From NCBI GenBank assembly GCA_035717485.1, contig DASTIQ010000283.1:2846-66845 (forward strand): DNA of 64,000 bases, written 5' to 3'. This document shows positions 37,002 to 57,078 of this stretch, piece after piece (the first letter of the stretch is position 1; each line of letters begins with the position of its first letter). The position numbers and the translations under genes were made by a program. Below the pieces are notes generated by a model. The model saw only the letters and a list, made by a program, of their open reading frames with translations, made no database searches and was not told where the DNA came from. Source of the stretch: Thermoanaerobaculia bacterium. GTDB taxonomy: Bacteria > Acidobacteriota > Thermoanaerobaculia > UBA5066 > DATFVB01.

Positions 37002-38336
37002 CTAGAGCTGGGAGCGGAAGGGCTGGAGCGCCCACTCGGACATCCGCTGCCCGAGCGATCGATGTTTCCACTCCGACAACGTGTAGGGGCGCGCCCGGGC
37101 GAGATCCCTCTCGAACATCTCCTCGAGGCGCGCGGCCGTTTCCCGATCGTCCGTGACGAGGTTGTCCTCTTCGTTCAGGCGAAACGACCTGTTGTCGAAA
37201 TTGGCGGAGCCGAGCGTGGCGAACAGCCCGTCGACGACCATGGACTTCTGGTGGAACATCGTGCCGCCGTATTCCCAGATGCCGACGCCGCCCGCGAGGA
37301 GGTCTCCGAAGGCCGCGCGGCCGGCGGTCTTGGTCGCCGGAACGTCGTTCACTTTCCCGGGGACGAGGATGCGGACGCGAACCCCCCGACGCCGCGCGGC
37401 GACCATGAGCGCGACGGCGTCGGAATCGGGCAGGAAATAGGAATTCGCGATGTCGATCGTCCTTTCGGACGATGCGAGGGCGACCGAGTAGAGTCTCTGG
37501 ACGTCGGCTCCGGCATACCGCGCGGAGGACGAGACGATCTCGGCGGCGACCGGCCCCGCCGCGTCGATGCGCGGGAAGAGCGCTTCGCCCGCGAGCGTCT
37601 CGCCGGTCGCCTCCGACCAGTTCTCCTGGAACGCCGCCTGGAGCTCCGTCACGACGGGTCCCTCGAGGCGCACCTGGGTGTCGCGCCAGTGCTCCCGGGA
37701 GTCGGCGTCGCCCAGCCATTCGTCGACGAAGCCGACGCTGCCGGTGAATCCGACGCGCCCATCGACGACGAGGATCCGGCGGTGCGTGCGGTGATCGATC
37801 GCGCCCCGGCTCCACGGCTTCTTTCGGTGGAAGAAGGCCACGTGGCAGCCGGCGCGCTGCATCGCCTCCACGTCGGAGGAGTTCAGCCGGCGCGCCGGGG
37901 ATCCGACCGCGTCGAGCAGCACGCGAACCGTCACGCCGTGAGAGGCGCGTTCCGCGAGCGCGTCGCGGAAGCTCGAACCGACCCGGCCGGACCAGAAGAT
38001 GTACGCCTCGAACGTGATCGTGGAGCGGGCGGCGCGGATCGCCTCGAGCATGGACGGGAAGATCCGGTCGCCGTTTTCGAGGAAATCCACGCGGTTACCC
38101 GCCGTCAACGCGGGCACCAGGAGGGCCGAGGGGACGAAGGTGGGGGCGGAGACGCCGAAGCCGTGAACGACCCGGAAGTTCGGATCCCGCGGCGCGCGCA
38201 GCCGGTAGAGCGCGGAGGCGAGCAGGACGCCGGCGACGATGGAGCCGGTGACGAGGGCGGCGGACGCGCCGCGGGTCCGCGGGCGAGCACGGGACGACGG
38301 GCGTGCGGCGCCCGGAGGCTTCGGGCGGGCGCTCAT
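37002..38336 (-). CDS. cls: cardiolipin synthase (PLD superfamily, two HKD-type motifs)
   Basis: 444 aa. N-terminal TM helices. Motif 1 reads HRTHRRILVVDGRVGFTGS (HxR rather than HxK); motif 2 reads HQKSMVVDGLFATLGSANFDNRS. The ATG overlaps the ubiB stop (ATGA). C-terminal part of track ORF 37002..40016. Confidence 0.85.
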   Translation of the reverse strand: MSARPKPPGAARPSSRARPRTRGASAALVTGSIVAGVLLASALYRLRAPRDPNFRVVHGFGVSAPTFVPSALLVPALTAGNRVDFLENGDRIFPSMLEAIRAARSTITFEAYIFWSGRVGSSFRDALAERASHGVTVRVLLDAVGSPARRLNSSDVEAMQRAGCHVAFFHRKKPWSRGAIDHRTHRRILVVDGRVGFTGSVGFVDEWLGDADSREHWRDTQVRLEGPVVTELQAAFQENWSEATGETLAGEALFPRIDAAGPVAAEIVSSSARYAGADVQRLYSVALASSERTIDIANSYFLPDSDAVALMVAARRRGVRVRILVPGKVNDVPATKTAGRAAFGDLLAGGVGIWEYGGTMFHQKSMVVDGLFATLGSANFDNRSFRLNEEDNLVTDDRETAARLEEMFERDLARARPYTLSEWKHRSLGQRMSEWALQPFRSQL

Positions 38337-40000
38337 CCGCGCCGGCGGTCGGGGTCGCGCCGCGTGGCGTCGCCGAACACGATGCTCGCGGCCAGAGCGA
38401 CGCCGCCCGCCGCCGCCCCGAGGAAGAAGACCATCGCGAGGCCCGGATAACCGAGGATCTGGAAGCGGGTCGGCACGTGCATCAGGAGCGCGGCCCCGAC
38501 GATCAGCGAAGCGAGGACGAGGCCGAGGGCGATCCGGTTGGCGATCTTGTGAAGTCCCTCGATCAGGAGGTGCTCGTCGATCGCATCGACCTTGAGACGC
38601 AGGCCGTTCTCCGCCGCGAGATCGAGGATCTTTCCGGCCCGCTCCGGGAGCTTGCCGACGAAGTCTTTCGCCTCGAGAAGCGTCGCGAACACGTTGCCGG
38701 GCCGTGCCTCCTGGCGCATGCGCCGGGACATGAGCTCGGCGCTGTAGCGGCGGATCGAGGCGTTCGGATCGAAGTCGGGCGCGAGGGTGCGGCCGACGAG
38801 ATCGAGGTGGAGGAGGGTCTTTCCCACGGTCGACAGCTCGGGCGGAAGCGCCATGCCGGTTTCCGCGGAGAGCCGGCTGATCTCGAGCAGCACGCGACCC
38901 ATCTGCAGGTCGCCGACGGTCGAGCCCGCGTACCGCTGGACGAGCTCCGCGATCGCGCGGCGGAAATCGTCCGGACGCGCATCCTCGGAGGGCCGGGCGA
39001 TCCCGACGACCGCTTCCGCGGCGCGCTCTCCGTGGCCTTCGCTCGCGGCGAGGAGGAAGCGCAGGAGGCGGTCGCGGACCTCGCTCGACAGCCGTCCGAC
39101 CATTCCGAGATCGACGAGCGCCAGGCGATGGTCCGAGGTGAGGAGGACGTTGCCGGGATGGGGATCGGCGTGAAAGAGGCCGTCGAGCAGCACCTGCTTC
39201 AGGTACCCCCGGAAGAGTTCGTCGGCCAGACGCTCCGTGTCGACGTCGATCAGCACGACCGGATGGAGGCCGGTGATCTTGGTTCCCTCGACGTACTCCA
39301 TCGTCAGCACGCGCCGGGACGTGTAGTCGTCGTACGGGCGGGGAATCACGAGGAGCGGAAAATCGGCGAGCTCCGCCCCGATCGCCTTGAGGTTGTTCGC
39401 CTCCTGGAGGTAGTCGAGCTCCGTCGCGAGCACCTTCCGGAATTCCGCGACCATGTCCCGGTAGGCGTGGTCGCGGCCGCCGCGGACGTGCCGGTCGACG
39501 AGGTCGGCGATCTCCTCGAACGCCTCGCCGTCCTCCTCGATGCGGCTTTCGATATCGGGGCGCTGGACCTTCACGGCAACCGGACGTCCGTCGCGGAGCG
39601 CCGCCCGATAGACTTGTCCGAGCGATGCCGCGGCGATCGGCGTGGGATCGAACGCGGAGAACGCCTTCGAGAGGCGGACGCCGAGTTCTTCCTCGATGAT
39701 CGTCTTCGCGCGTTCGAAGGGGAACGGCTCGACGTCGTCCTGCAGCCGGCTGAGGGCATCGAGGTAAGTCGACGGGAGCAGGTCGGCCCGGGTGGAGAGG
39801 ATCTGCCCGAGCTTGATGTAGGCGGGGCCGAGCTCTTCGAGATCGCGCGCCAGCTCTTTCGCGGGTGCCTCGGCGCCCGCCGCCGGGGGAGGCGCGTCCG
39901 CGTCGAGGCTGCGCGCGATGTCGCCACGACCGTATTTCCACAGGAGCGTGGCGATGTCCTTGTATCGAGACACGTGTTTCGGCTTCAGCGAAAGGGCCAT
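38333..40000 (-). CDS. ubiB: UbiB/ABC1-family atypical kinase (ubiquinone biosynthesis regulator)
   Basis: 555 aa from MALSLKPKHVSRYKDIATLLWKYG...LGPAYIKLGQILSTRADLLP...; C-terminal TM helices. In-frame part of track ORF 38333..42757. Confidence 0.85.
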   Translation of the reverse strand: MALSLKPKHVSRYKDIATLLWKYGRGDIARSLDADAPPPAAGAEAPAKELARDLEELGPAYIKLGQILSTRADLLPSTYLDALSRLQDDVEPFPFERAKTIIEEELGVRLSKAFSAFDPTPIAAASLGQVYRAALRDGRPVAVKVQRPDIESRIEEDGEAFEEIADLVDRHVRGGRDHAYRDMVAEFRKVLATELDYLQEANNLKAIGAELADFPLLVIPRPYDDYTSRRVLTMEYVEGTKITGLHPVVLIDVDTERLADELFRGYLKQVLLDGLFHADPHPGNVLLTSDHRLALVDLGMVGRLSSEVRDRLLRFLLAASEGHGERAAEAVVGIARPSEDARPDDFRRAIAELVQRYAGSTVGDLQMGRVLLEISRLSAETGMALPPELSTVGKTLLHLDLVGRTLAPDFDPNASIRRYSAELMSRRMRQEARPGNVFATLLEAKDFVGKLPERAGKILDLAAENGLRLKVDAIDEHLLIEGLHKIANRIALGLVLASLIVGAALLMHVPTRFQILGYPGLAMVFFLGAAAGGVALAASIVFGDATRRDPDRRRG

Positions 40001-40056
40001 GCCGGAAGAAATGCAAGGACCGGGCCGGGTGGCCGAAGAGGCCAGTTTCGAGGCGG

Positions 40057-41370
40057 TCAGCCGTTCGGCGGGCGATCCGTCCCGCCGGCGTCCGCCTCGC
40101 GCCCCGTGATCAGCCGCGCGCCGCGCTGCCACGTGAGGTAGGCCCACGCCCACTCGAACATGACCAGGAGCCGGTTCCGGAATCCGATCAGGAAGAAGAT
40201 GTGGATCCCGAGCCAGGCCGCCCACGCGAAGAACCCCGAGATCTTCCACCCGCGGATGTCCGCCACGGCCGCGCTCCTGCCGATCGTGGCCAGCGTCCCC
40301 TTGTCGACATAGTGGAACGGGATCGTCGGCCTTCCGGCGATCCGGCGGCGGATCGAGCGGGCCGCGTGGCGCCCCTCCTGCATGGCCGCGGGAGCGAGGC
40401 CGGGAACGGGGCGGCCCTCCTGCTCGACCGCGGCGAGGTCTCCCGCAACGAAGATCTCGGGGTGCCCCGGAACGGAGAGGTCGGGCTCGACCCGGACGCG
40501 TCCCTGCCGGTCGAGCGGAACGCCGAGCGATCTTCCGAGCGGCGAGGCGGCGACTCCGGCGGCCCAGAGCGCGGTGCGAGCGCCGATCCGCTCCGTTCCG
40601 AGCCAGACGGCCTCCTCGTCGATCTTCGTCACGCGGGCTCCCGTGCGGATCGTCACCCCGAGGGATTCCAGCTGCCGCGCCGCCTTCGCCGAGAGCTCGG
40701 GCGGAAAACCGGGAAGGACGCGCTCCGCGGCCTCGACGAGGACGACGGCGGCCTGCGCCGGGTCGATGTCGCGGAAGTCGCGAACGAGCGAGTGGCGGGC
40801 GATTTCCGAGAGCGCCCCGGCGAGCTCGACGCCGGTCGGACCTCCTCCGACGACGACGAACGTGAGGAGCTCCCGGCGGGCGGCGGCATTCGTCTCCCAC
40901 TCCGCGCGCTCGAACGCCAGGAGGACGCGCCGCCGGATTTCGAGCGCATCGTCCACCGTCTTCAACCCCGGCGCGTGGGGACGCCATTCGTCGTGGCCGA
41001 AGTACGAGTCTCCCGCTCCCGACGCCACGATCAGGAAGTCGTAGCCGAGATCGCGCCCGTCGACGCGGAGCCTGCGGCCGGAGGGATCGATCGACGTCAC
41101 TTCGCCGAGAAGGACCGTCGTGTTCTTCCGGGCGCGCACGACGCTCCGGATCGGCGCGGCGATGTCGCTCGGGTTCAACGCGGCGGTCGCGACCTGGTAG
41201 AGGAGCGGCTGGAAGAGATGGTGGTTCCGGCGATCGACGATCGTGAGCCGCACGGGAGCGGCCGCGAGCTCCCGCGCCGCCGCGAGTCCCGCGAATCCTC
41301 CACCGATCAGCACGACGTGCGGGCGGGCGGAATCCGCGGGGGCGCGGCCGGACACGGTCGACGACGTCAC
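40057..41370 (-). CDS. ndh: type II NADH dehydrogenase (NDH-2)
   Basis: About 437 aa. HVVLIGGGFAGL and VVGGGPTGVELAG dinucleotide folds; C-terminal amphipathic membrane anchor. GTG start chosen (the upstream ATG would overlap the divergent gene), so the start is uncertain. Confidence 0.8.
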   Translation of the reverse strand: MTSSTVSGRAPADSARPHVVLIGGGFAGLAAARELAAAPVRLTIVDRRNHHLFQPLLYQVATAALNPSDIAAPIRSVVRARKNTTVLLGEVTSIDPSGRRLRVDGRDLGYDFLIVASGAGDSYFGHDEWRPHAPGLKTVDDALEIRRRVLLAFERAEWETNAAARRELLTFVVVGGGPTGVELAGALSEIARHSLVRDFRDIDPAQAAVVLVEAAERVLPGFPPELSAKAARQLESLGVTIRTGARVTKIDEEAVWLGTERIGARTALWAAGVAASPLGRSLGVPLDRQGRVRVEPDLSVPGHPEIFVAGDLAAVEQEGRPVPGLAPAAMQEGRHAARSIRRRIAGRPTIPFHYVDKGTLATIGRSAAVADIRGWKISGFFAWAAWLGIHIFFLIGFRNRLLVMFEWAWAYLTWQRGARLITGREADAGGTDRPPNG

Positions 41371-41425
41371 GGCGGCAGAATATCGCCGTCGCGCGATACA
41401 CTCTCCGGGTTCGGAAGGAGGCGGC

Positions 41426-42445
41426 ATGCGCGGCGCGCGTCTTCTCGTTCTCACCCTGGTCGCCGGGCTCCTGTCCGCGGCGACGCCGGCGGCTCCCGGA
41501 GGGAAGGCGATCCCGCTTCCCGAAGGCTCGGGCGGCATCGGCCTCGACGACATGGGATGGGCGCCTTCGCTCTCCCGCATCGTCGTTCCGGCGGGGCGGA
41601 CGGGCCGCATCGACCTGATCGATCCCGCCGGGGGCCCGATGATCGAGATCGGCGGGTTCCGCGTGTCGGCGGCCGGGGCCGGCCACGGCGAGGGGACCAC
41701 GTCCGCCTCCGAGGGAGCCGGCCTGCTGTTCGCGACCGACCGGACCGCGGGCGAGGTCGTCGCCGTCGACGAGAAGGAACGGAAGATCGTCTCGCGCGCG
41801 AAGCTCGCCGGAGGACCCGACTACGTGCGCTGGGTCGAGGCCACCCACGAGATCTGGGTGACCGAACCCGACGGCGAGAAGATCGAGATCTTCCGGCTCG
41901 GCTCCGGCTTCCCGCCCACCATCGAGCACGTCGGTTTCGTTTCCGTTCCCGGCGGTCCGGAGTCGCTCGCGATCGACGGAGCGCGGGGAAGGGCGTACGC
42001 GAATCTCTGGAAGGCGGAAACCGTGGCGATCGACCTGAAAGCGCGGAGCGTCGCCGCGCGGTGGAAGAACGGCTGCGGCGGCGCCCGCGGCCTCGCCCTC
42101 GATCGCCGGCGCGGGTTCCTCTTCGCCGCGTGCACCGAGGGGCGCGTCGTCTCCCTCGACGTCGAAAACGGAAAGACCCTGTCGTCGGTCGCCGCGCCGA
42201 ACGGCATCGACATCATCGACTACAACTCCGCGCTCGGCCATCTCTACGTCCCGGGAGCCAAGGACGCGCAGCTCGCGGTCGTTTCGGTCTCGAAGTCGGG
42301 AGAGCTCGCGGCTCTCGGGCGTTTCCCGACGGCCCCGCGCGCGCATTGCGTGGCGTCCGAGCCGGGCGGCGGGATCTACGTCTGCGACCCGCCGCACGGC
42401 GCCGTCATCGTCCTCCGGGACACGTTCCCGGGAGGAACGCCGTAA
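41426..42445 (+). CDS. secreted YVTN/NHL-like beta-propeller repeat protein
   Basis: 339 aa. GGAAGGAGG ribosome-binding site. Signal peptide MRGARLLVLTLVAGLLSAA. Confidence 0.65.
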   Translation: MRGARLLVLTLVAGLLSAATPAAPGGKAIPLPEGSGGIGLDDMGWAPSLSRIVVPAGRTGRIDLIDPAGGPMIEIGGFRVSAAGAGHGEGTTSASEGAGLLFATDRTAGEVVAVDEKERKIVSRAKLAGGPDYVRWVEATHEIWVTEPDGEKIEIFRLGSGFPPTIEHVGFVSVPGGPESLAIDGARGRAYANLWKAETVAIDLKARSVAARWKNGCGGARGLALDRRRGFLFAACTEGRVVSLDVENGKTLSSVAAPNGIDIIDYNSALGHLYVPGAKDAQLAVVSVSKSGELAALGRFPTAPRAHCVASEPGGGIYVCDPPHGAVIVLRDTFPGGTP

Positions 42446-42494
42446 CGGCGCGCCCCTCTGGCGCGCCGCGTGCAGGCGCGCCCGTTCGAACGCG

Positions 42495-43736
42495 ATGATG
42501 CCGCTCCTGTGCGCCCTGCTCCTCGCCGCGGCTTCTCCCGCGCCCCTGACGCTCGACGACGCGATCCGGCTCGCGCACGAGGCCAACGCGAAGCTCCCCC
42601 AGGCCGCTCTGGAGCGGGACTCCGCCGAGGAGAAGATCCGGGAGGCGCGGGCGGAACGGTGGATGAAGGTCGCGATCGACGGAGATTTCCTGTACGCCCC
42701 GCCGGGCGGATACGACCCGGTCGTGACGAACGCCGGCGAGGCCCGCCTGCAGCTCACGGCGAAGCAACCGCTCCTCGACGGCGGCGCCCGCCGGGCGGCG
42801 ATCTCGAAGGCGGGCGCGGACCGGGACGCGGCGACCGCCCGCTACCGGGTGGCCGAGAAGGATCTCGACGTCGAGGTGACGAGCCGGTTCGCCGAGCTCG
42901 TCGAGGCGGGCGACGAAGCGGAGGCGCGCCGCGGCGGGATCGAAAGGCTGAGTCGATACCGGACGACGCTCGAGAGCCGGAAGGCGTCGGGGCAGGGCGT
43001 CGCCGCGGACCTGCTCAAGACCGACGTCCGGCTCGCGTCGGACGAGGCGGACGCCATCGACGCCGACGCGCGCGCGGAGGAAGCGCGAACGGAGCTGAAC
43101 GTGCTCATGGGCCGCGCTCCGGAGGCGCCGCTGACGGTGGTCGCTCCGCCGATTCCGGCGGCCGCTCCCGCCGCGTCCGGGCCGCCGCCCGCATCGCCCG
43201 AAGTCCGCGAGGCCTAGGCGCTCGCGCGCGGCGCCGACGCCGACGTCGTCGCCGCGGAGGCCGAGCGCAAGCCCCATCTCTTCGCGTCGGCGGACGCCGG
43301 ATGGTGGGGCTCCGACACGACGCGCTGGTCGATCGAGCGCTGGCGTCAGGACGCGGGCTTCTCGCTCGGAATGCAGGTGTCCTGGCTCCTCTGGGATTTC
43401 GGGGCCTCGGACGCGCGGATCGCTCGCGCGCGAATCGAGGGACGCCGGGCGCGGCTCGAAATCCTCGCGCGGGAACGCGAAGCCGCGCTCCAGCGGGCGA
43501 AGGCCCGGGCGACGGCCGAGGCCCTTCGCCGGCAGATCGACGTGCTCACGCGGGCGGCGCCGGCCGCGCGCGATTCGTGGCTGGAAGCCGAAAGCCGATA
43601 CCGCGGGGGCGCCGCGTCCGCGCTCGAGGTGATCGACGCGTACGCGGCGGCGATCGACGCCTCGATCAAGCTCGCGCAGGCGGAGTCCCGCCTGCGGATC
43701 GCGGAGGCGCTCGAGAAACGATGGGAGACGCCATGA
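42495..43736 (+). pseudogene. TolC/CzcC-like outer-membrane efflux factor interrupted by an in-frame TAG at 43215-43217
   Basis: Track ORFs 42495..43217 and 43371..43736 are in the same frame. The read-through product is 413 codons, a normal OMF length, with both alpha/beta repeats. The operon order is OMF-MFP-RND. Confidence 0.55.
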
Positions 43737-44716
43737 CCTTCCGAGCGCGCCTTTCGACGCTCCTCCTGGCGGCGATCCTCGCGTCCGGGTGCGGCGGGAG
43801 CGCGACGGACCCGAAGAAGGAGCAGTCCTCCGCCCCCGGGCCGGCGACGCCCGTCCGCGTCGCTCCGGTCGAGAAAGCGACGCTCGCCGAGATCGTCTCC
43901 GCTCCCGGCAAGATCACCGCGATGTCGCAGGAGAAGGTCCGCGCCCCGTTTGCCGGCACGCTCGTCGAGTTCACCGTCACGGACGGCGACCGCGTGCGCC
44001 GCGGCCAGATCGTGGGGAGCGTGGTCGCGCGGGACAGCGAAGCGGCGCTCGCGGGAGCCCGCGAGATGGAGCGGGAGGCGAAGTCCGACGCCGAGCGGCG
44101 TGACGCCGCCCGCGCCGTCGAGCTCGCGCGGCGGAACCTCGTCCGGGCGCCTCTGGCCGTCGCGTCCGACGGGATCGTGGTCTCTCACGCCGCGAGCGCT
44201 GGCGACCGGGTTTCCGAGGACGAGGAGATCCTGTCGATCGCCGAGACGAAGTCTCTCGTGGTCCTCGCGGACGTCCCGCAGGCGCAACTCCCGAAGATCC
44301 GCGCCGGCGAGGCGGTGCAGATCGAGATCCCCGGGCGTCCGCCGGCCGGCGGGAGAGTGCACGGCATCCTCGCGGAATCCGGCCCTTCGGATCTGACGGC
44401 GCCGGTACGCATCGATCTCGACGCCGCGCCGGGAATGGCCGTCGGCCTGTTCGCGACCGCGCGGATCACGGTCGCCGAGCGGCGCGACGTCCCGTCCGTG
44501 CCGGACGCCGCCGTCGTCCGGGACGACGTGACCGGAGCGTCGCGCGTCGCCGTCGCGGGAGCCGACGGGAAGGCGCACTGGATCGCCGTGACGCCCGGGA
44601 TCGCGCAGAACGGCCGTACGGAGATCGCCGCCCCCCCGCTCGATCCCGCGATTCGCGTGATCGTCTCGGGGCAGGCGGGTCTCCCCGAGGGCACTCCGGT
44701 GGCGCCGTCGCGATGA
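43733..44716 (+). CDS. RND efflux membrane-fusion (periplasmic adaptor) lipoprotein
   Basis: 327 aa. Lipobox ILASGC; HlyD/AcrA-type beta-barrel and lipoyl motifs. Start overlaps the OMF stop; stop overlaps the RND start (ATGA). Confidence 0.8.
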   Translation: MTFRARLSTLLLAAILASGCGGSATDPKKEQSSAPGPATPVRVAPVEKATLAEIVSAPGKITAMSQEKVRAPFAGTLVEFTVTDGDRVRRGQIVGSVVARDSEAALAGAREMEREAKSDAERRDAARAVELARRNLVRAPLAVASDGIVVSHAASAGDRVSEDEEILSIAETKSLVVLADVPQAQLPKIRAGEAVQIEIPGRPPAGGRVHGILAESGPSDLTAPVRIDLDAAPGMAVGLFATARITVAERRDVPSVPDAAVVRDDVTGASRVAVAGADGKAHWIAVTPGIAQNGRTEIAAPPLDPAIRVIVSGQAGLPEGTPVAPSR

Positions 44717-47700
44717 GCCTCGCGCGACTGGCGCGGGACCGGGGCGCGGCCGTCTTCCTCGTCGTCGCCGTTCTCGTGGCGGGCGGGGTCTTCGAGGCGT
44801 TGCGCTCGCCGGCCTCGATCTTTCCGGCGGTCACGTTCCCGATCGTCAAGGTCATCGCGGACGTCGGCGAGGAGCCCGCTTCGCGGATGATGCCGACGTC
44901 GACGCGCCCCCTCGAGGAGGCGGTCCTCCGCGTTCCCGGCGTGCGCCGGGTCCTCTCGGCGACGTCGCGCGGCTCGACCGAGATGAGCGCGGAGTTCTCG
45001 TGGGGAACCGACATGCGGCAGGCGCTCCAGCGCGTGCAGGCGGAGGTCGAGCGCATCCGCCCCGACCTGCCTCCGGACGCCAAGGTCGACGTCGAATGGA
45101 TGAGCACGTCGATCTTTCCGATCCTCGGCTACGCCCTCACGTCCGACACGGAGTCGCAGGCGTCGCTCTGGGAGCTCGCCGAATACACGCTGAAGCCCGC
45201 CCTCATCCGGATTCCGGGCGTGGCGCAGGTGCAGATCCAGGGCGGCCGCCGGCGCGAGTTCCAGGTCCGTCTGGATCCGGCGGCCCTCGCGGGAAGGAGG
45301 CTCTCGGCGCGCGACGTCGTCGACGCGATCCGGAAGAACAACGACGTCGAATCGGCCGGCCTGCTCGAGTCGAACCACGAGCTGTATCTCTCCCTCGTCG
45401 ACGGCCGCGCACGGGGCATCGACGAACTCGCCGCGCTGCCGGTTCCGCTCCCCGGCGAAGGCGTGCCGGCGCGGCTTTCGGACCTCGGGACCGTCGCCTC
45501 CGGCGACGCCTTCTCGCCGGTCCGGACGACCGCCGACGGCCGGCCCGCCGTTCTCGTCAACATCGTCCAGCAGCCCTCGGCGAACACCGTCGCGATCGCG
45601 CGCGGCGTGTCCGACCTCCTCCGCCGGGAGCCGGGATTGATCCCGAGGGGAGTCCGCTGGACCAATTTCTACGATCAGGCCGCGTTCGTCTCGGGGTCGG
45701 TCGGCGGCGCCCGGGACGCGATCCTGATCGGCGTCGGACTCGCGGTGCTGGTCCTCTTCTTCTTCCTGCGGGACTGGCGCCTCACCGCGATCGCCGCGGC
45801 GACGATCCCGGTCTGCGTCGCGATCGTCCTGCTCGGACTCGCGGCGGCCGGTCAGACGATCAACCTCATGACCCTCGGCGGCATCGCGGCGGCGATCGGC
45901 CTCATCGCCGACGACGCGATCGTCGTCGTCGAGGACATCCAGCACGGCGCCCACGCGTCGGGCGGCGAGCTCGCCGAGGACCTCGGGATCTCGCGCTTTC
46001 TCCCTCCGCTCCTCGGCTCGAGCCTTTCGACGGTGGTCATCTTCCTGCCGTTCGTCCTCGTCACGGGGGTCACGGGGGCGTTCTTCCGGCCGCTCGCCCT
46101 GACGATGGCGATGGCGCTCGGCGTGTCCTTCCTCCTGTCGGCGGTCGCCGTCCCCGCGGCCGTCAAGGCGCTGGGCGCGACGAAAGGGCGGGGCAAGCCT
46201 CCCGCGGAGGAGGGCATGCCGCGCCTCCGGCGCCTCGTCTCCGCCTTCGTCCGCCGGCCGGTTCTCGCGCTCGCCGCGTTCGTCGTCCTGATGGCGAGCG
46301 CATACGTCCTCTGGCGCGTGATCGGAACCGACTTCCTTCCGGAGATGGACGAGGGTTCGATCATCCTCGACTACTGGACGCCGCCCGGAACGTCGCTCAC
46401 CGACACCGATCAGATGCTCGACGCGGCCGAGAAGATCATCCGCGCAACGCCCGACGTCGACGCCTACTCGCGGCGCACGGGAACGCAGCTCGGTTTCTTC
46501 ATCACCGAACCGAACCGGGGCGATTACGTGATCAAGCTGAAGCCGAAGAAGCACCGCCGCGACGTCGACGACGTCATCGACGACCTCCGCGGCAAGATCG
46601 CTTCCGCCGAGCCGGCGATCCACACCGATTTCGGGCAGCTCCTGGAAGACAACATCGGGGATCTCACGGGCGGCGTGCCGCAGCCGATCGACGTGAAGAT
46701 CTTCGGCTCGGACCCGGCTCTCCTCGAGCAGAAGGCGCGCCAGGCGGCGAAGATCATCGGCGGCGTGCACGGCGTCGAGGACGTCTTCGACGGGATCACG
46801 ATCGCCGGCCCGGCGCTCTCGATCCGTCCCCACGCCGGCGTCCTCGCCCGCAGCGGGATGACGACCGACGACCTGCACGCGGCTGTCGAGCCCGCCCTCA
46901 CGGGGACCCTCGCCGGCGACCTCCCGATCGGGGAGCGCGTCTATCCGGTCCGCGTCTTCACGCGGCGGAACGGCCCGATCACCGGTATCTCGGTGAAGAC
47001 CGGCTCCGGAGCGGTCGTGCCGCTGTCCGACCTCGCGTCGATCGAAACCGGGCCTCCGGAAGCGGAGATCGACCGCGAGAACCTGAAGAGCTATTTCGGA
47101 GTGACGGCGCGGCTGGCGGGGCGCAGCCTGGGAGACGCCGTCGGGGAGATCCGGAACAAGCTGGGGTCGCAGCTGGCGCTCGGGCCGGGAATGACGCTCG
47201 CCTACGGCGGCCAGTACGAGCAGCAGCAGTCGTCCTTCAAGTCGCTCGTCGGGGTCCTCCTCGGGGGACTCCTCCTCGTCGCCGTCGTGCTCCTCTTCGA
47301 ATTCGGGGACTGGCGAGCGCCGCTCCTGACCGGACTCGTTTCCCTGTCGGTGCTCGCGGGCGTCTTCGCCCTCCTGCTCGCGACGGGAATGACGCTGAAC
47401 ATCTCGAGCTTCGTCGGGGCGATCATGATGGTCGGCATCGTCGGGGAGAAGTCGGTCTTCTTCATCCACGACGCACGCGAGGAGCTGCGGCGGGGGTACG
47501 CGAAGGAGGAGGCGTGGGCGCGGGCGGCCGAGCGGCGGTTCCGGGCCGTCGCGATGACGACGCTCGCCACCGTCTTCGCCCTGCTGCCGCTCGCGCTCGC
47601 GTGGGGCGCCGGCGCCCAGCTGCAGCAGCCGCTCGCGATCGCGGTGATCGGCGGGTTCATCTTCTCGGGGCTCGTCGTCCTGCTGATCCTGCCCGCCCTC

Positions 47701-47739
47701 TATTCGTGGCTCGACCCGAAAGGGCGACTGGGGCGGTGA
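44713..47739 (+). CDS. RND efflux permease (CzcA/CusA-like by operon order; HME versus HAE1 not resolved)
   Basis: 1008 aa with 12-TM AcrB/CzcA architecture. Confidence 0.85.
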   Translation: MSLARLARDRGAAVFLVVAVLVAGGVFEALRSPASIFPAVTFPIVKVIADVGEEPASRMMPTSTRPLEEAVLRVPGVRRVLSATSRGSTEMSAEFSWGTDMRQALQRVQAEVERIRPDLPPDAKVDVEWMSTSIFPILGYALTSDTESQASLWELAEYTLKPALIRIPGVAQVQIQGGRRREFQVRLDPAALAGRRLSARDVVDAIRKNNDVESAGLLESNHELYLSLVDGRARGIDELAALPVPLPGEGVPARLSDLGTVASGDAFSPVRTTADGRPAVLVNIVQQPSANTVAIARGVSDLLRREPGLIPRGVRWTNFYDQAAFVSGSVGGARDAILIGVGLAVLVLFFFLRDWRLTAIAAATIPVCVAIVLLGLAAAGQTINLMTLGGIAAAIGLIADDAIVVVEDIQHGAHASGGELAEDLGISRFLPPLLGSSLSTVVIFLPFVLVTGVTGAFFRPLALTMAMALGVSFLLSAVAVPAAVKALGATKGRGKPPAEEGMPRLRRLVSAFVRRPVLALAAFVVLMASAYVLWRVIGTDFLPEMDEGSIILDYWTPPGTSLTDTDQMLDAAEKIIRATPDVDAYSRRTGTQLGFFITEPNRGDYVIKLKPKKHRRDVDDVIDDLRGKIASAEPAIHTDFGQLLEDNIGDLTGGVPQPIDVKIFGSDPALLEQKARQAAKIIGGVHGVEDVFDGITIAGPALSIRPHAGVLARSGMTTDDLHAAVEPALTGTLAGDLPIGERVYPVRVFTRRNGPITGISVKTGSGAVVPLSDLASIETGPPEAEIDRENLKSYFGVTARLAGRSLGDAVGEIRNKLGSQLALGPGMTLAYGGQYEQQQSSFKSLVGVLLGGLLLVAVVLLFEFGDWRAPLLTGLVSLSVLAGVFALLLATGMTLNISSFVGAIMMVGIVGEKSVFFIHDAREELRRGYAKEEAWARAAERRFRAVAMTTLATVFALLPLALAWGAGAQLQQPLAIAVIGGFIFSGLVVLLILPALYSWLDPKGRLGR

Positions 47740-47894: not shown

Positions 47895-48440
47895 ATGAGT
47901 ACGAATATCCGTATCGTCCTGGCTCTGGTCACGGCCGCGGCCGCGTTGCCGCTTCTGGGGTCGCCCCCGCCGCCCTCGCCGCGGAGCGGGGAGCCGGCAA
48001 AGACGGCCCGGCCTGCCGGCATACCGACCCGGGCACATCCGCTCGACGTCAATACCGCGTCGGAGGCCGAGCTCGCGGCGCTGCCCGGGGTCGGAACCGA
48101 GGGCGCGCGGCGGATCGTCGACGCGCGGCCGTTCGCATCCGTCGCCGAGCTCTCGCGGACCGGACTCTCGAAAGAGACGCTCGAACGGATCGGGCCGCTC
48201 GTGAAGGTGACGGGCGCCGGAGGGCCGTCGACTCCGATGGGGGCGGCGGACCGGCCGATGAACCCCGCCCCGCCGCCGAGGGCCGTCGTTCCTCCGCACC
48301 GGGGCATGGTGTGGGGAGATCCGGACTCGCGCACGTATCGGCTCTCGAGCGACCCCGCCTCCGGGAGGACGGAACATGGCCGCTGGATGACGGAGAGCGA
48401 GGCGATCCAGGCGGGGTACCGAAAGTCCGGGAAGGAGTGA
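47895..48440 (+). CDS. secreted single-HhH (ComEA-like) protein with the same C-terminal W/Y/G-rich module as CDS 9685..10791
   Basis: 181 aa. GGAGGGAG ribosome-binding site and signal peptide. LDVNTASEAELAALPGVGTEGARRIVDARPFASVAELSRTGLSKETLERIGPLVKV; C-terminus GMVWGDPDSRTYRLSSDPASGRTEHGRWMTESEAIQAGYRKS. Confidence 0.7.
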   Translation: MSTNIRIVLALVTAAAALPLLGSPPPPSPRSGEPAKTARPAGIPTRAHPLDVNTASEAELAALPGVGTEGARRIVDARPFASVAELSRTGLSKETLERIGPLVKVTGAGGPSTPMGAADRPMNPAPPPRAVVPPHRGMVWGDPDSRTYRLSSDPASGRTEHGRWMTESEAIQAGYRKSGKE

Positions 48441-48477: not shown

Positions 48478-48765
48478 TTATTTCTTGGCGCCCTTCTTCG
48501 CGGCGGGCTTGACCTCGACGCTCGTCGCGGTCATCCGGTACTCGATCGTCACTTTGTCGCCGACCTTCACGTCGGCGGGCATCTTCGTCGAGCCGTCGCG
48601 CGCGATCTCCCAGCGATCCTTCCCCTTCTGGACGGTGATCATCGTCGGGCTCACCTCGAGCACGGGACCCGTGACCTGGTAGGTCTTCGCCGTCTCCGCC
48701 GAGGCGGCGAGCGGGAAGAGCGAGGCGACCGAGACGGCGGCGGCGAGGAGCAGCTTCGATTTCAT
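48478..48765 (-). CDS. small secreted hypothetical protein (paralogous in pattern to CDS 1171..1452)
   Basis: 95 aa. AAAGGAGAA ribosome-binding site. Signal peptide MKSKLLLAAAVSVASLFPLAASA, then TYQVTGPVLEV...KVGDKVTIEY...VEV. Confidence 0.6.
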   Translation of the reverse strand: MKSKLLLAAAVSVASLFPLAASAETAKTYQVTGPVLEVSPTMITVQKGKDRWEIARDGSTKMPADVKVGDKVTIEYRMTATSVEVKPAAKKGAKK

Positions 48766-48886
48766 GGGTTCTCCTTTCGTCCGCGATTCTACGTCCAGGC
48801 GCCCCTTTCCGCGGATTCGTCCGGCCGGGGTACGCTCTCTCCGACGAGGTGCGCCCGCCGGCCGGAACTCCGCAGCCGGCCGGGAT

Positions 48887-51817
48887 ATGCTTCTCGGCGC
48901 CGCCGACGTGAGACCTCCCACGAGAAACCGCACGCGCCCGAGTCCGGTCGACGCCCGCGGTCTCGCCGAAGCGCTTCGCCGGAGCGTCCGCGGCGACGTC
49001 CGCTTCGACGCCGGCTCGCGCGCCCTCTACGCGACCGACGCGTCCAACTACCGCCAGGTGCCGATCGGCGTCGTGGTGCCTCTCGATGCGGAGGACGTCA
49101 TGGCGGCGCTCGCCGCGGCGCGCGCGTTCGGCGCGCCGGTGCTTTCCCGGGGAGGCGGGACGAGCCTCGCGGGCCAGTGCTGCAACGTCGCGGTGGTCCT
49201 CGACTTCTCCCGCCATCTCGACCGCGTGCTCGAGGTCGATCCCCGCCGCCGGCTCGCCCGCGTCCAGCCGGGATGCGTGCTCGACACGCTGCGCGACGCG
49301 GCGGCGCCCCACGGGCTGACGTTCGGCCCCGATCCCGCCACCCACGCGTACAACACGCTCGGGGGAATGATCGGAAACGATTCGTGCGGCGTGCACTCGG
49401 TGATGGCCGCGTTCGAAGGAGACGGCGGAACGACCGCGGCCAACATCGAGTCGCTCGAGGTCGCGACGTACGGGGGCGAACGCCTGCGCGTGGGGCGGAC
49501 GACCGACGCGGAGCTCGCGGCGATCGTGGCCGCCGGAGGACCGCGCGGCGCGATCTACGCGGCGCTCCGCGATCTCCGCGACCGCTACGCGGACGAGATC
49601 CGCGCCCGTTATCCTCGGATCCCGCGGCGCATCTCGGGTTTCAACCTGCCGCAGCTCCTTCCGGAGAACGGTTTCCACGTCGCGCGGGCGCTCGTGGGAT
49701 CCGAAGGCACGTGCGTGACGGTGCTCGAGGCGACCGCGAACCTCGTTCCGGCGCCCCCCGCCCGATCCCTCGTCGTGCTCGGCTTCGAGGACGTCTTCGC
49801 CGCGGCCGACGCGGTTCCGTCGATCATGGCGCATCGGCCGATCGGCCTCGAGGGAGTCGACGACCGGCTCGTCGCGGACATGGCGGCGATCGGCCTGCAC
49901 CGCGACGCTCTCGGGCTGCTTCCGCGCGGCCGCGGCTTCCTGCTCGTCGAGTTCGGCGGAGCGACCCGCGCCGAGTCGGACGCGAGGGCCGCGGCGCTCG
50001 CCGCGGCGATGGCCGGGGCGACGGCCGGCCACCGGCTCTTCGCGGACGCGGACGACGAACGGCGCCTCTGGCTCGTGCGCGAATCGGGGCTCGGCGCGAC
50101 CGCGCACGTTCCCGGAAAGTCGCTCACGTGGGAGGGATGGGAGGACTCGGCCGTTCCGCCGGAGAGGCTCGGGGCCTACCTTCGCGACCTGCGGAGGCTC
50201 CTCGACGAACACGGCTACCGCGGCGACTTCTACGGCCATTTCGGAGAGGGATGCGTCCACACGCGGATCGACTTCGATCTCGAATCGCCGGCCGGCGTCG
50301 ACCGGTTCCGGCGATTCCTCGCGGACGCCGCGCGGCTGGTCGTGTCCTTCGGCGGATCGCTCTCGGGTGAGCACGGCGACGGGCAGTCGCGCGCCGAGCT
50401 GCTCCCCCTGATGTTCGGCGAGCGGCTCGTGACCGCCTTCCGCGAGTTCAAGGCGATCTGGGACCCCGACGGAAGGATGAACCCGGGAAAGGTCGTCGAC
50501 GCTCACGGCGCGACCGAGAACCTGCGGCTGGCCGGCGGTCCGCTCGCGGCGCCCTCGCCGACCGCGTTCCGATACCCGGAGGACGGAGGGAGCTTTCCCC
50601 GCGCCATGCTGCGATGCGTCGGCGTGGGGGCCTGCCGCCGCACCGAGGGCGGAACGATGTGCCCGAGCTTCATGGTGACCCGGGAGGAGAAGCATTCGAC
50701 GCGCGGCCGGGCGCGCCTCCTCTTCGAGATGCTGAAGGGGGAGGCGCTCACCGCGGGATGGAGGAGCCGGGAAGTGCGCGAGGCGCTCGACCTCTGCCTT
50801 TCCTGCAAGGCGTGCAAGAGCGAGTGTCCCGTCCAGGTCGACATGGCGACGTACAAGGCCGAGTTCCTCTCGCACCATTACGCGCGGCGCCTTCGTCCGC
50901 GGGCCGCCTGGTCGATGGGTCTCTTTCCCTGGATCGCGCGGGCGGCGTCGATGGCGCCCGGCGCGGCGAATTTCCTCACGCATGCGCCGCTCCTCTCGGG
51001 CGTCGCGAAGTTCGCGGCGGGCATCGCGCCCGAACGGGAGGTGCCGCGCTTCGCGCCGAAAACCTTCGTCTCGGAGTTCCGGCGGGAGGGGGAAGACGCG
51101 CGCGGCGTCCCGGTCCTCCTCTTTCCCGACACCTTCACGAATCACCTGGAGCCGCGAATCGCTCACGCGGCGGTGTCGGTCCTTCGGCGCGCCGGGTTCC
51201 GCGTCGAGATTCCGCCGCGGCCGCTCTGCTGCGGCCGGCCGCTCTACGATTTCGGCATGCTGGATCTCGCGCGCCGGCAGCTGCGGACGATCCTCTCCGC
51301 GCTCGCCCCCGCCCTCGCCGCGGGGACGCCGGTCGTCGTGCTCGAGCCGGGCTGCGCCTCGGTGTTCCGCGACGAGCTGCGGAGCCTGTTTCCCGACGAC
51401 GGCGCCGCGCGGCGGCTCTCGGAGACGACCTTTCTCCTCTCGGAGTTCCTCGCGCGGGCTCCCGGTTACCGGCCGCCGACGCTCCGGGGGCGCGCTCTCG
51501 TGCAGCCGCACTGCCATCATCGCGCGGCGACCGGATTCGCGGAAGAGCGGACCCTGCTCGAGGCGGCCGGGCTCTCGGTCGACGTGCCGGACGCCGGCTG
51601 CTGCGGCATGGCCGGAGCGTTCGGGTTCGAGCGCGGCGAGCGTCATCGGGTCTCCGTCGCCGTCGGCGAGCGGGCTCTCCTTCCGATCGTCCGCGCGGCG
51701 TCGCCCGACACTCTCGTCCTGGCCGACGGGTTTTCCTGCCGCGAGCAGATCGCGCAGGGGACCGGGCGCCGGCCGAAGCACCTCGCGGAGGTCCTCGGGC
51801 CGGGAGAGCCGGCATGA
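48887..51817 (+). CDS. YdiJ-like FAD-binding / Fe-S (CCG-domain) oxidoreductase (D-2-hydroxyacid dehydrogenase family)
   Basis: About 976 aa. FAD-binding PCMH domain (GGGTSLAGQ), 4Fe-4S motif CLSCKACKSECP, two CCG motifs (LCCGRPL, GCCGMAG). The start at MLLGAAD is uncertain; the track ORF begins at 48764. Confidence 0.8.
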   Translation: MLLGAADVRPPTRNRTRPSPVDARGLAEALRRSVRGDVRFDAGSRALYATDASNYRQVPIGVVVPLDAEDVMAALAAARAFGAPVLSRGGGTSLAGQCCNVAVVLDFSRHLDRVLEVDPRRRLARVQPGCVLDTLRDAAAPHGLTFGPDPATHAYNTLGGMIGNDSCGVHSVMAAFEGDGGTTAANIESLEVATYGGERLRVGRTTDAELAAIVAAGGPRGAIYAALRDLRDRYADEIRARYPRIPRRISGFNLPQLLPENGFHVARALVGSEGTCVTVLEATANLVPAPPARSLVVLGFEDVFAAADAVPSIMAHRPIGLEGVDDRLVADMAAIGLHRDALGLLPRGRGFLLVEFGGATRAESDARAAALAAAMAGATAGHRLFADADDERRLWLVRESGLGATAHVPGKSLTWEGWEDSAVPPERLGAYLRDLRRLLDEHGYRGDFYGHFGEGCVHTRIDFDLESPAGVDRFRRFLADAARLVVSFGGSLSGEHGDGQSRAELLPLMFGERLVTAFREFKAIWDPDGRMNPGKVVDAHGATENLRLAGGPLAAPSPTAFRYPEDGGSFPRAMLRCVGVGACRRTEGGTMCPSFMVTREEKHSTRGRARLLFEMLKGEALTAGWRSREVREALDLCLSCKACKSECPVQVDMATYKAEFLSHHYARRLRPRAAWSMGLFPWIARAASMAPGAANFLTHAPLLSGVAKFAAGIAPEREVPRFAPKTFVSEFRREGEDARGVPVLLFPDTFTNHLEPRIAHAAVSVLRRAGFRVEIPPRPLCCGRPLYDFGMLDLARRQLRTILSALAPALAAGTPVVVLEPGCASVFRDELRSLFPDDGAARRLSETTFLLSEFLARAPGYRPPTLRGRALVQPHCHHRAATGFAEERTLLEAAGLSVDVPDAGCCGMAGAFGFERGERHRVSVAVGERALLPIVRAASPDTLVLADGFSCREQIAQGTGRRPKHLAEVLGPGEPA

Positions 51818-53483: not shown

Positions 53484-53581
53484 GACCGGATTGTAAGCCA
53501 ATCGGGTAGTAGCGAAACTATGGCTATAGGTAGTGGTGGTACCATTGTTGCATTGTGAGCCTGCCCGAAGGGGAGGAACCA

Positions 53582-56500
53582 ATGCAGACGAATTCGGGCG
53601 CCTACCGGACCCTGGCGATCGGGTTGCTCGCCGCGATTCTGGCGACGACCGCCGCTTTCGCGGGATCGCCATCCTCGGGCACGCTTTCTCCGACCGTCAC
53701 GACGCTGACCTATACCGGGGGACCATTCGACTACGACAACGACTCGGCCCCGATCGGGGGCGTCACGCCGACGTGTGCCGACCCGGCACTTCCTTGCGAT
53801 TCTTATGCGCTGAAGGTGTCGATTCCGGCGACCGACGGAACGTCCTACGTCGTGACCGTCTCGATCGGCTGGGCCGACGCCTCGTCCGACTTCGACATGA
53901 CGGTTCTCGACGCGAACGGAAACGAAGTGGCGCAATCGGCCTCTGCCGCGGACCCGGAGGTCGTGAGCTTCTCCGCGATTCCGCGGGTCGATACGGACTA
54001 CACCGTCCTCGTCGTCCCCTACGCGGTCAACCACGGCGCCGGCGGCGACACGTTCACGGGAACGATCACGCTCACCGTCAATTCGACGCCTCCGCCGCTT
54101 CCCTCCCCGCCGCCGGTTCCGGGCGTTCCCCGGTATCAGACCTACACGCCCGCCTCCGGGAGCGGCCTCGGTCTGAGCGCCGGCGAGCCGTCGATCGGCG
54201 CCGACTGGAAGACCGGGAAGTTCATGTTCCAGTCCGACGTGCAGACTCTGCGCGTGGGGTTCGATCGCTCCTGTCCCTCCTTTGCGAAATCGCTCTGGGA
54301 GAACAAGTCCTCTCCGACGTCGCAGGAGGATTCCGATCCGATCCTCTTCACCGATCCCCGGACCGGCCGCACCTGGGAGGGAATGCTGCTCCTCCTGACC
54401 GGTCGAAACGAGGGCGCGTTCTCCGACGACGACGGAGATCTCTGGATTCCGAGCCAGGGGAGCGCGATCGACTCCGGGATCGATCACGAGACGATCGGCG
54501 GGGGGCCCTTCGCCCCGCCCCTAACCCGGGACCCGAACGGCGCCGCCTATCCGGATGCCGTGTATTACTGCTCCCAGGACCTCGAAACCGCGATGTGCGC
54601 GGTCTCGGCCGACGGCGGCGCGACGTTCGGGCCGGCCGTTCCGATCTACACCTTCGAGGACTGCATCGGGATCCACGGGCACGTGAAGGTCGCTCCGGAC
54701 GGAACGGTCTACGTGCCCAACCGCAGCTGCAACGCCCCTCAGGCGGCCGTCTATTCGACCGACAACGGCGCGACGTGGACGGTCTCTCCCGTGCCCGACA
54801 GCACCAGCGGCGATTCCGATCCTTCGATCGGGATCGGCGCGAACGGAACGATCTACTTCGCCTACCAGGCCGGCAACGGCCACTCGATGATCGCCGTCGG
54901 ACATCGCACCGCTTCCGGCATCACGTGGTCGCCGAGCCAGGACGTGGGAGCCTCCTTCGCGATCCGGAACACCGCCTTCCCGGCCGTCATCGCCGGCGAC
55001 GACGATCGCGCCGCCGATGCCTTTCTCGGGACCCCCGCCGCCGGAGACTTCCAGAGCCAGAGCTTCCGCGGCATCTGGCACCTCTACGTCGCGCACACTT
55101 ACGACGGCGGACAGACGTGGACGACCGTCGACGCGACCCCCGACGATCCCGTCCAGCGGGGCTGCATCTGGCTCGGGGGCGGCGCGGTGACCTGCCGCAA
55201 CCTCCTCGACTTCAACGACGCGACGGTCGATCGGGAAGGACGCGTCGCCGTCGCCTATGCCGACGGCTGCACGGGGCCTTGCGTCGACGCGCCGTTCTCC
55301 GCGACGGGGAATGCCTTCACGGCGCTCGCGTCGATCGCGATCCAGTCGGGCGGCAGGCGCCTGTTCCACCAGTTCGATCCCGCCGAGCCCGTCGCTCCCG
55401 GGAATCCGGCCGTGACCGCGACGCGGGACGCTTCCGGCGTTCACGTCGAATGGACCGAGCCCGACAGCGGCGGATCGCCGATCACCGGGTACAAGCTGTA
55501 TCGCCGGGCCGACGGCCAGTCGCAGCCGACGCTCCTCGCGACGACGACGGCGCAGAGATATCTCGATCGGGCCGCGACGCCCGGCGTGAACTACTTCTAC
55601 AGCGTCGCGACCGACAACTCGGTCGGAGAGAGCTCCTCCTGCGGTCTCGCCGCCAGCGAGGTCGGCGTGACCGACGTCGTCGGCTCGCCGTGCGCGCTTC
55701 CGGGCGTCCGCGTCGTCGCGGATGCGAGCGGCGACCAGACGGGCGCGCCGGCGAACGCCGACGTCGACATCCAGTCGGTCTCGGTCGCCGAGCCGTACGA
55801 TTCCTCGGGCGCGGAGAACCTCGTCTTCACGATGAAGGTCGCCGATCTCTCGACGCTCGTTCCGGGCCGGGCCTGGCGGATCGTCTGGAACTATCCCGCT
55901 CCGCCGCCGATCCCGAACTTCCCCTTCGACGGGATCTACTACGTCGGCATGAACACGGACGACACGGGCGCCGTGAGCTTCGAGTACGGCACGGTGAGCC
56001 TCGGGACGATCGGACTCGTTCTCGCCAACCCGGTTCCGAACCCGATCGGACCGGTCGACGGGAAGTACTTCGCCGACGGCACGATCCGGATCACCGTTCC
56101 GCGAATGCAGGTCGGGGATCCGAATCCGGGCGACCTGCTCGGCGGGCTCTACGGACGGGTCTTCCCGTACGACAGCGCTCAGAAGAACTTCCGTTCGACG
56201 ACGGCGCTCGATTCCACCCCCCTCGGGACGTATGCCGTCGTCGGCAACGGCGCGTGCGCTCCGAAGGTCACGACCACCTGCCTGGAGGACGACGACGCGC
56301 GGATCGCGTATTCGAACGGATGGCACCTCGAGCAGGCCTCGGGCGCGTCGGCCGGGCACTACCGGCTCCACCTCGGCAGCAACCCGAACGACGGCGTGAG
56401 CCTGACGTTCCAGGTTCCGTCCGGGCAGACGGGAACACTGGCCTACTCCTACGCAACGAGCACGAAAGGAGGCTCGGCGCTCGTGTACGTGGACGGCATC

Positions 56501-56983
56501 GCGAAGGGAACGGTGAGCTTCGCCGGACCGCAGGGCGACGTGCGGAGCCCGCAGTTCGGCGCGTCGCTCACCTTCGACGGACTCGCCGCCGGGACGCACA
56601 CGTTCGAGCTCCGCTCGATCAACGGGGCCGCGTACGTCGACGGTTTCTGTCTCGCCTCCGCTTCTTCGTCGGCGCAGCCGGCGGCCGGTCCGGGATCGAC
56701 GACGAATGCGACCGGAACGATCTCGGCGGCCCAGCAGCTGATCAGCACGGTATCTCTTCCGGCGAAGACGACGGCGGTCGCTCTGGCGGCCGACGCGTCC
56801 GCTCCGATCCAGCTCGTCCTCATGAGCTCGACCGGGACCGTGCTCGCGACGGCGTCGAACACCTCGGGTCCCGCCGTGATCGAGGCTCCCGCCTCGGCGG
56901 GGACGTATCTCGTCAAGACCGTGAACGTCAGCGCCGGCCCGGTCACCGTCTGGACCGCGACGACCCCGTACGTGTCCCGGTAG
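53582..56983 (+). CDS. large secreted BNR/Asp-box (sialidase-like beta-propeller) protein with an FN3 domain and C-terminal beta-sandwich domains
   Basis: 1133 aa. GGGGAGGAA ribosome-binding site and signal peptide. Asp-boxes VSADGGATFG, YSTDNGATWT, HTYDGGQTWT. FN3 domain ...VHVEWTEPDSGGSPITGYKLYRR...NYFYSVATDN. Confidence 0.8.
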   Translation: MQTNSGAYRTLAIGLLAAILATTAAFAGSPSSGTLSPTVTTLTYTGGPFDYDNDSAPIGGVTPTCADPALPCDSYALKVSIPATDGTSYVVTVSIGWADASSDFDMTVLDANGNEVAQSASAADPEVVSFSAIPRVDTDYTVLVVPYAVNHGAGGDTFTGTITLTVNSTPPPLPSPPPVPGVPRYQTYTPASGSGLGLSAGEPSIGADWKTGKFMFQSDVQTLRVGFDRSCPSFAKSLWENKSSPTSQEDSDPILFTDPRTGRTWEGMLLLLTGRNEGAFSDDDGDLWIPSQGSAIDSGIDHETIGGGPFAPPLTRDPNGAAYPDAVYYCSQDLETAMCAVSADGGATFGPAVPIYTFEDCIGIHGHVKVAPDGTVYVPNRSCNAPQAAVYSTDNGATWTVSPVPDSTSGDSDPSIGIGANGTIYFAYQAGNGHSMIAVGHRTASGITWSPSQDVGASFAIRNTAFPAVIAGDDDRAADAFLGTPAAGDFQSQSFRGIWHLYVAHTYDGGQTWTTVDATPDDPVQRGCIWLGGGAVTCRNLLDFNDATVDREGRVAVAYADGCTGPCVDAPFSATGNAFTALASIAIQSGGRRLFHQFDPAEPVAPGNPAVTATRDASGVHVEWTEPDSGGSPITGYKLYRRADGQSQPTLLATTTAQRYLDRAATPGVNYFYSVATDNSVGESSSCGLAASEVGVTDVVGSPCALPGVRVVADASGDQTGAPANADVDIQSVSVAEPYDSSGAENLVFTMKVADLSTLVPGRAWRIVWNYPAPPPIPNFPFDGIYYVGMNTDDTGAVSFEYGTVSLGTIGLVLANPVPNPIGPVDGKYFADGTIRITVPRMQVGDPNPGDLLGGLYGRVFPYDSAQKNFRSTTALDSTPLGTYAVVGNGACAPKVTTTCLEDDDARIAYSNGWHLEQASGASAGHYRLHLGSNPNDGVSLTFQVPSGQTGTLAYSYATSTKGGSALVYVDGIAKGTVSFAGPQGDVRSPQFGASLTFDGLAAGTHTFELRSINGAAYVDGFCLASASSSAQPAAGPGSTTNATGTISAAQQLISTVSLPAKTTAVALAADASAPIQLVLMSSTGTVLATASNTSGPAVIEAPASAGTYLVKTVNVSAGPVTVWTATTPYVSR

Positions 56984-57003
56984 TCGCTGGATTTTCGATT
57001 CGC

Positions 57004-57027
57004 GGGCGCCGCCGGCGTGCGGCGCCC
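57004..57027 (+). terminator. GC hairpin terminator
   Basis: GGGCGCCGC-cggcgt-GCGGCGCCC followed by GCCTTTCCC, 20 nt after the stop. Confidence 0.45.
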
Positions 57028-57078
57028 GCCTTTCCCGCCGCCCGGTGCGCCGCGCGGCGGCTTCGAGGGAGGGGGACC

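Follow-up and report, generated by a model that had tools for sequence, protein, structure and literature searches.

An in-frame amber codon in the outer-membrane factor gene of an RND-type efflux operon from a Thermoanaerobaculia assembly, probably a recent loss-of-function allele

Outer-membrane factors (OMFs) of the TolC family (Pfam PF02321), such as TolC of E. coli, OprM, CzcC and CusC, form trimeric channels, and in the established TolC architecture each protomer needs both of its structural repeats to supply the β-strands and helices of the channel. The gene described here lies in a 64,000-nt stretch of DNA from a Thermoanaerobaculia metagenome-assembled genome, hereafter called the window. 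Like the members of this family, its product has two tandem OEP repeats, would be ~413 aa long if read through, and is encoded at the head of a tripartite OMF-MFP-RND efflux operon. Unlike them, it is cut by a TAG codon after residue 240 and has a very short leader without basic residues. Operons of the czcCBA/cusCBA (HME-RND) type have the same order of OMF, MFP and RND genes with overlapping stop and start codons, whereas the RND protein of the window misses the TIGR00914 cut-off and carries an AcrB-like Asp-Asp pair rather than the HME motif, which in TM4 reads DFGxxxDGAxxxVEN. A third point of comparison is provided by ordinary nonsense pseudogenes and null alleles, in which one substitution has introduced a stop too early in comparison with intact orthologs and the gene shows no further decay. 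The window gene shares these properties, including disruption at a sense codon that is conserved in intact orthologs, and nothing sets it apart from such alleles.

The ATG at 42495, the TAG at 43215-43217 and the TGA at 43734-43736 share one frame on the plus strand, and the gene (42495-43736) is thus read as 240 codons, the TAG and 172 codons, that is, 413 codon positions (Table 1). This frame count agrees with an earlier note, made from the letters alone, according to which a single TAG splits a 413-codon TolC-like ORF into two in-frame halves. The same note had proposed that the halves could be the two repeats of one OMF, and matches to the Pfam OEP profile (PF02321) were indeed found in the same frame on both sides of the TAG: residues 1-240 match profile positions 1-187 (E=2e-22) and the 172 residues past the TAG match positions 23-180 (E=4e-18), both exceeding the 22-bit cut-off. 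The second-half homology does not begin at residue 293, as had been supposed, residue 293 being merely the first in-frame ATG (43371); it resumes 4 residues after the TAG, at residue 245. Since the match to repeat 2 starts right after the TAG, the TAG lies within repeat 2 of a single OMF, about 20 residues from the start of that repeat. An uninterrupted frame of ~400-480 codons, missing in the window because of the TAG at codon 241, is present in all of the 29 aligned homologs. As these 29 full-length homologs align gap-free across the site, one of them at 98% identity, the assignment to one protein is far beyond chance, and, as judged from sequence, both sides of the TAG are OEP repeats of one TolC-type protein. 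The G+C content is 69% over the window and ~73% near the OMF locus.

Table 1. Coordinates of the efflux operon features in the window.
Feature	Position	Strand	Description
OMF N-terminal part	42495..43217	+	Leader (short, hydrophobic), OEP repeat 1, start of repeat 2 (~20 residues); ends at premature TAG
Premature amber TAG	43215..43217	+	Ancestral codon GAG (Glu), G>T at 43215, from homolog alignment and related contigs
OMF remainder	43218..43736	+	OEP repeat 2, 172 codons plus TGA; in frame, undamaged; untranslated if TAG terminates
MFP (periplasmic adaptor) gene	43721..44716	+	Intact; HlyD_3, HlyD_D23 (Pfam)
RND permease gene	44713..47739	+	Intact, 1008 aa; ACR_tran, E=5e-191; HET9795732.1; start overlaps MFP stop

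The closest uninterrupted relative in a database search, P0001, is 98% identical to the window OMF, and many other uninterrupted relatives of 412-418 aa were found. Against the NCBIfam models P0001 scores 92.5 bits for TIGR01844 (TolC; cut-off 225) and 59.3 bits for TIGR01845 (NodT; cut-off 210). These scores are far below the TolC and NodT cut-offs, which points to a divergent OMF clade of Acidobacteriota type whose family membership holds at the Pfam level only. The leader of the window OMF (42495-42545) is very short and without a basic residue (MMPLLCALLLAAASPAP); the short leader is kept in the closest relatives, and an upstream in-frame start is absent.

In the alignment of 29 homologs, the column occupied by the TAG is Glu in 18 of the 18 uninterrupted relatives at 71-98% identity (context …PEVxEA-E-AL…), and a stop at this column occurs in none of the 29. 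At this site the contig that encodes P0001, from a forest-soil metagenome (L001), has GAGGCC-GAG-GCGCTC, and the window has GAGGCC-TAG-GCGCTC. The two are ~98% identical in nucleotides, and within a 100-column block around the site they differ at the TAG alone. Three further contigs came from a pattern scan of JGI metagenomes in which any base was accepted at the mutated position, and all have GAG. The orthologous loci L005 and L006 also both have GAG, and the homologous codon is GAG in six of the six related contigs that were read (L001-L006). When the genomes collected in GTDB were scanned for the exact pattern with either allele accepted, there was no match, and the TAG allele was not found in any other public contig searched, being confined to this single assembly. 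The earlier note had expected CAG, TGG or TAC as the original codon, and it is GAG that the relatives show instead. GAG in every related contig, together with Glu in 18 of 18 relatives, argues for a single assembly-specific change: on these comparisons, the lesion is one G>T substitution at 43215, by which GAG (Glu-241) has become TAG.

The window and L001 differ at 25 codons, and these differences were polarised with three outgroups to approach the age of the change. Eleven changes fell on the window lineage: 7 synonymous, 3 conservative replacements (A104S, D281E and V324L, all at variable columns) and 1 nonsense. Past the TAG, the window lineage has four of these changes, 2 synonymous and 2 conservative. 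Comparison with relatives revealed neither a frameshift nor a second stop past the TAG, and all family-invariant OMF residues of the 29-homolog alignment are retained in the window. A dN/dS test for relaxed selection on the window lineage was dropped, 11 substitutions, 4 of them after the TAG, being too few. With the rest of the gene intact and the relatives carrying GAG, the stop must have arisen very recently or be an artefact, and the substitution counts match the expectation for a very recent or unreal stop.

We favour the reading that the TAG is real and marks a loss of function that arose very recently in the population behind this Thermoanaerobaculia assembly, with a probability of roughly 0.6. 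The TAG stands in frame, with an OEP repeat of the same protein on either side, and the OMF gene is otherwise undamaged with its invariant residues kept, which indicates that the event was recent; relaxed selection would be undetectable with the 4 lineage-specific substitutions past the TAG, which are too few. Furthermore, when all nine proteins of L005 were compared with the window by tblastn, a stop was encountered in the OMF only, and the eight other genes of the neighbourhood (PLD, UbiB, NDH2, propeller, MFP, RND, HhH and hyp95) match their orthologs without stop or frameshift. These ~11 kb of clean neighbouring conserved genes argue against an assembly that is generally error-ridden in this region. 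The same clean surroundings thus weigh on the main rival to the real allele, a sequencing, assembly or consensus artefact, in which case the organism would have GAG, the T at 43215 would be a miscalled base or a minority variant, and the OMF would be intact in vivo. An artefact would fit the one-base difference, the GAG in all relatives, the flawless remainder of a gene under apparent purifying selection, and the restriction of the TAG allele to one assembly, which is a third-party metagenome-assembled genome. Moreover, the change is a G>T, the typical signature of oxidative-damage artefacts. On the other hand, substitution errors are rare in a short-read consensus, and bacterial populations often carry real nonsense alleles. 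We regard an artefact as possible, although it is not the reading that we would choose, and it would take the reads to tell a consensus or base-calling error from the real allele.

The earlier note had offered three explanations for the TAG, and the first two, recent pseudogenisation and an assembly or sequencing error, are those that stand. The third, regulated read-through, is not supported, as the stop is not conserved and TAG terminates elsewhere in the window. More generally, programmed read-through or recoding of the TAG, by a suppressor tRNA, a pyrrolysine-type system or a reassigned codon, would yield a full-length OMF, and the undamaged in-frame state of both halves would be consistent with it; that state would follow just as well from a recent mutation or from an error. 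Orthologs should share a recoding signal, and the stop is kept in 0 of the 29 aligned homologs, and the six related contigs have a plain Glu codon. A GC3-based scan of the whole window also looked for in-frame stops with codon-position G+C of coding type to either side. Besides the OMF stop, it picked out three TAGs (2257, 30036 and 57649) and a TGA at 19658 (minus strand). According to Pfam matches and sequence, one of the three TAGs parts a TPR protein from a GlmU-like enzyme, one parts a PlsC-type acyltransferase from an Mrp/ApbC ATPase, which has its own GGAGG and TTG start, and one parts a protein of no recognised family from a PF03601 membrane protein. Genome-wide recoding of TAG was therefore rejected, within the limits of these 64 kb: the TAGs at 2257, 30036 and 57649 are ordinary boundaries between unrelated genes, and because they separate unrelated proteins, TAG does end translation in this genome.

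Other observations run in the same direction. Neither the G+C scan nor the neighbourhood tblastn gave another gene with an in-frame TAG inside a domain. The single tRNA of the 64-kb window is a tRNA-Phe, and a tRNA with a CUA anticodon was not found in it. The RNA around the TAG is not unusual in folding energy (z = -1.22 relative to shuffled controls), and the flanks of the TAG do not differ from those in L001, the relative with GAG. A full-text search of the literature for stop-codon reassignment in Acidobacteriota gave, judged by title and abstract, only a paper on ribosomal peptides. Taken with the lack of conservation, we consider read-through or recoding very unlikely. An even slighter chance is given to a TAG allele that is real and partly suppressed, for instance through mis-reading by a near-cognate Gln, Glu or Tyr tRNA or through a suppressor tRNA encoded elsewhere; in that event little full-length OMF would be made, and the TAG would act as a strain-specific attenuator of efflux-pump output.

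A further way to retain a channel would be a functional split OMF, with the halves made as separate polypeptides that assemble. OMF protomers are internally duplicated, each half being one structural repeat, which would suit such an arrangement. However, the first in-frame ATG, GTG or TTG past the TAG is the ATG at 43371 (ORF 43371-43736), which lies 51 codons downstream of the TAG and inside repeat 2, and with no start codon in between these 51 codons of repeat 2 would be lost. A protein begun at 43371 would lack a signal peptide, and this ATG is not preceded by a Shine-Dalgarno-like sequence, i.e. there is no obvious ribosome-binding site. In the alignment, the Met at 43371 occupies an ordinary internal position at which relatives have M, V, L or I, and no split relative is present. 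Thus the possibility, raised in the earlier note as one that would overturn its interpretation, that the downstream half is a separate complete protein does not hold, with a start 51 codons in and no signal peptide, and we find a functional split OMF scarcely credible.

If the real allele is accepted, its consequences can be outlined as follows. The G>T at 43215 would turn the conserved Glu-241 codon GAG into TAG, and translation would end after 240 residues. Given the TolC architecture, a 240-residue product limited to the first structural repeat would be expected to form no channel. About 500-516 nt from the TAG to the MFP start would be left untranslated. With ribosomes stopping at 43217 and the stretch before the MFP gene untranslated, the coupling of MFP and RND translation to the OMF frame would be lost, and the expression of both genes would probably be lowered, polarity being likely. 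Two Shine-Dalgarno-like motifs, GGAGG (43703-43707) and GGGAG (43723-43727), lie inside the 3′ end of the OMF gene and could still permit independent initiation of the MFP. The MFP-RND pair could presumably work only if an OMF encoded elsewhere in the genome substitutes. A tblastn search with an OMF found no second copy in the window. A candidate for a compensating second efflux system at 48764-51817 was rejected, the large ORF being a FAD-oxidase/Fe-S fusion and not an RND pump.

At most, then, the dedicated channel of one RND pump would have been lost in a single strain or population of this uncultured Thermoanaerobaculia bacterium from soil. The lesion is an ordinary single-base nonsense change or a miscall, with no special decoding mechanism; its biological weight is small, and its practical value concerns annotation. 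The source annotation has consecutive proteins HET9795730.1, HET9795731.1 (MFP) and HET9795732.1 (RND). The first of these, a 240-aa 'TolC family protein', is 100% identical to the N-terminal part of the OMF (P0031, encoded on a contig of 74,223 bp) and is deposited as a normal protein without a pseudogene flag, and the C-terminal half of the OMF has no matching protein there. HET9795730.1 is a truncated stub; its entry needs either a pseudogene flag or a check of the reads.

The MFP and RND genes downstream of the OMF are intact. The coupling proposed in the earlier note between the OMF and the downstream MFP and RND genes is borne out by the gene borders, as the RND start overlaps the MFP stop and the two candidate MFP starts, ATG 43721 (16-nt overlap) and ATG 43733 (ATGA overlap), both overlap the OMF end. 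The tblastn match of the MFP ortholog is full-length from 43721 and without stops. Upstream of ATG 43721, which was picked by the gene callers in L005 and L006, GGAGG is found at a distance of 13 nt; ATG 43733, the start of HET9795731.1 (327 aa), has GGGAG 5 nt upstream. The position of 43733 is CTG in L001 (2490-2510) and GTG in L002, that is, it is not conserved as an ATG start. The MFP has a lipoprotein-like leader (…LAAILASGCGG) and scores 91.7 bits against TIGR01730 (RND_mfp), for which the cut-off is 94.9. The RND protein is 91% identical to its L005 ortholog across residues 1-1008, with no stops (tblastn).

The designation of the operon as czcCBA-type, also made in the earlier note, is borne out by the gene order and fails for the RND protein. 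This protein reaches 447.2 bits against TIGR00914 (CusA/CzcA), short of the cut-off of 701.45, and 473 bits against the multidrug model NF033617, slightly higher and likewise under the cut-off. Its TM4 (around residues 395-412) reads GLIADDAIVVVED, with an Asp-Asp proton relay of the AcrB type, and the stretch …AIGLIADDAIVVVEDI… has the AcrB-like DD and does not match the HME signature. As the RND protein misses the CusA/CzcA cut-off and lacks the HME motif, the operon should not carry a czc heavy-metal label. With an AcrB-like DD and scores that reach the curated cut-off of neither the heavy-metal nor the multidrug subfamily, the RND protein appears to be part of an uncharacterised clade common in Acidobacteriota.

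The locus around the OMF is syntenic with L005 and L006 in the genes for PLD, UbiB, NDH2, the β-propeller, OMF, MFP, RND and the HhH protein. Directly upstream of the efflux operon in the window, L001, L005 and L006 is the β-propeller gene. Its product in the window (41426-42445, plus strand) is ~339 aa long, weakly matches a YncE-like 7-bladed model of NCBIfam (E=7e-8) without a hit in Pfam, and may be functionally linked to the pump. Long 'shadow' ORFs at 42470-44716 (plus), 38333-42757 (minus) and 37002-40016 (minus), of 748, 1474 and 1004 aa, respectively, were set aside as high-G+C artefacts. The 1004-aa ORF is a ~430-aa PLD gene extended upstream over the UbiB gene, which is in another frame. 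With shadow ORFs arising from the high G+C, ORF length alone proves no gene in this window. The 1372-aa ORF at 53533-57651 (plus) has coding-type codon-position G+C near its 3′ end and no Pfam hit at E<0.01, and is a large protein of unknown family. The HHH_3 protein comes after the RND gene in the relatives, its syntenic copy in the window being at 48000-48314 (plus), and three consecutive segments at 9814-10485 (plus) also resemble an HHH_3 (ComEA-like helix-hairpin-helix) protein.
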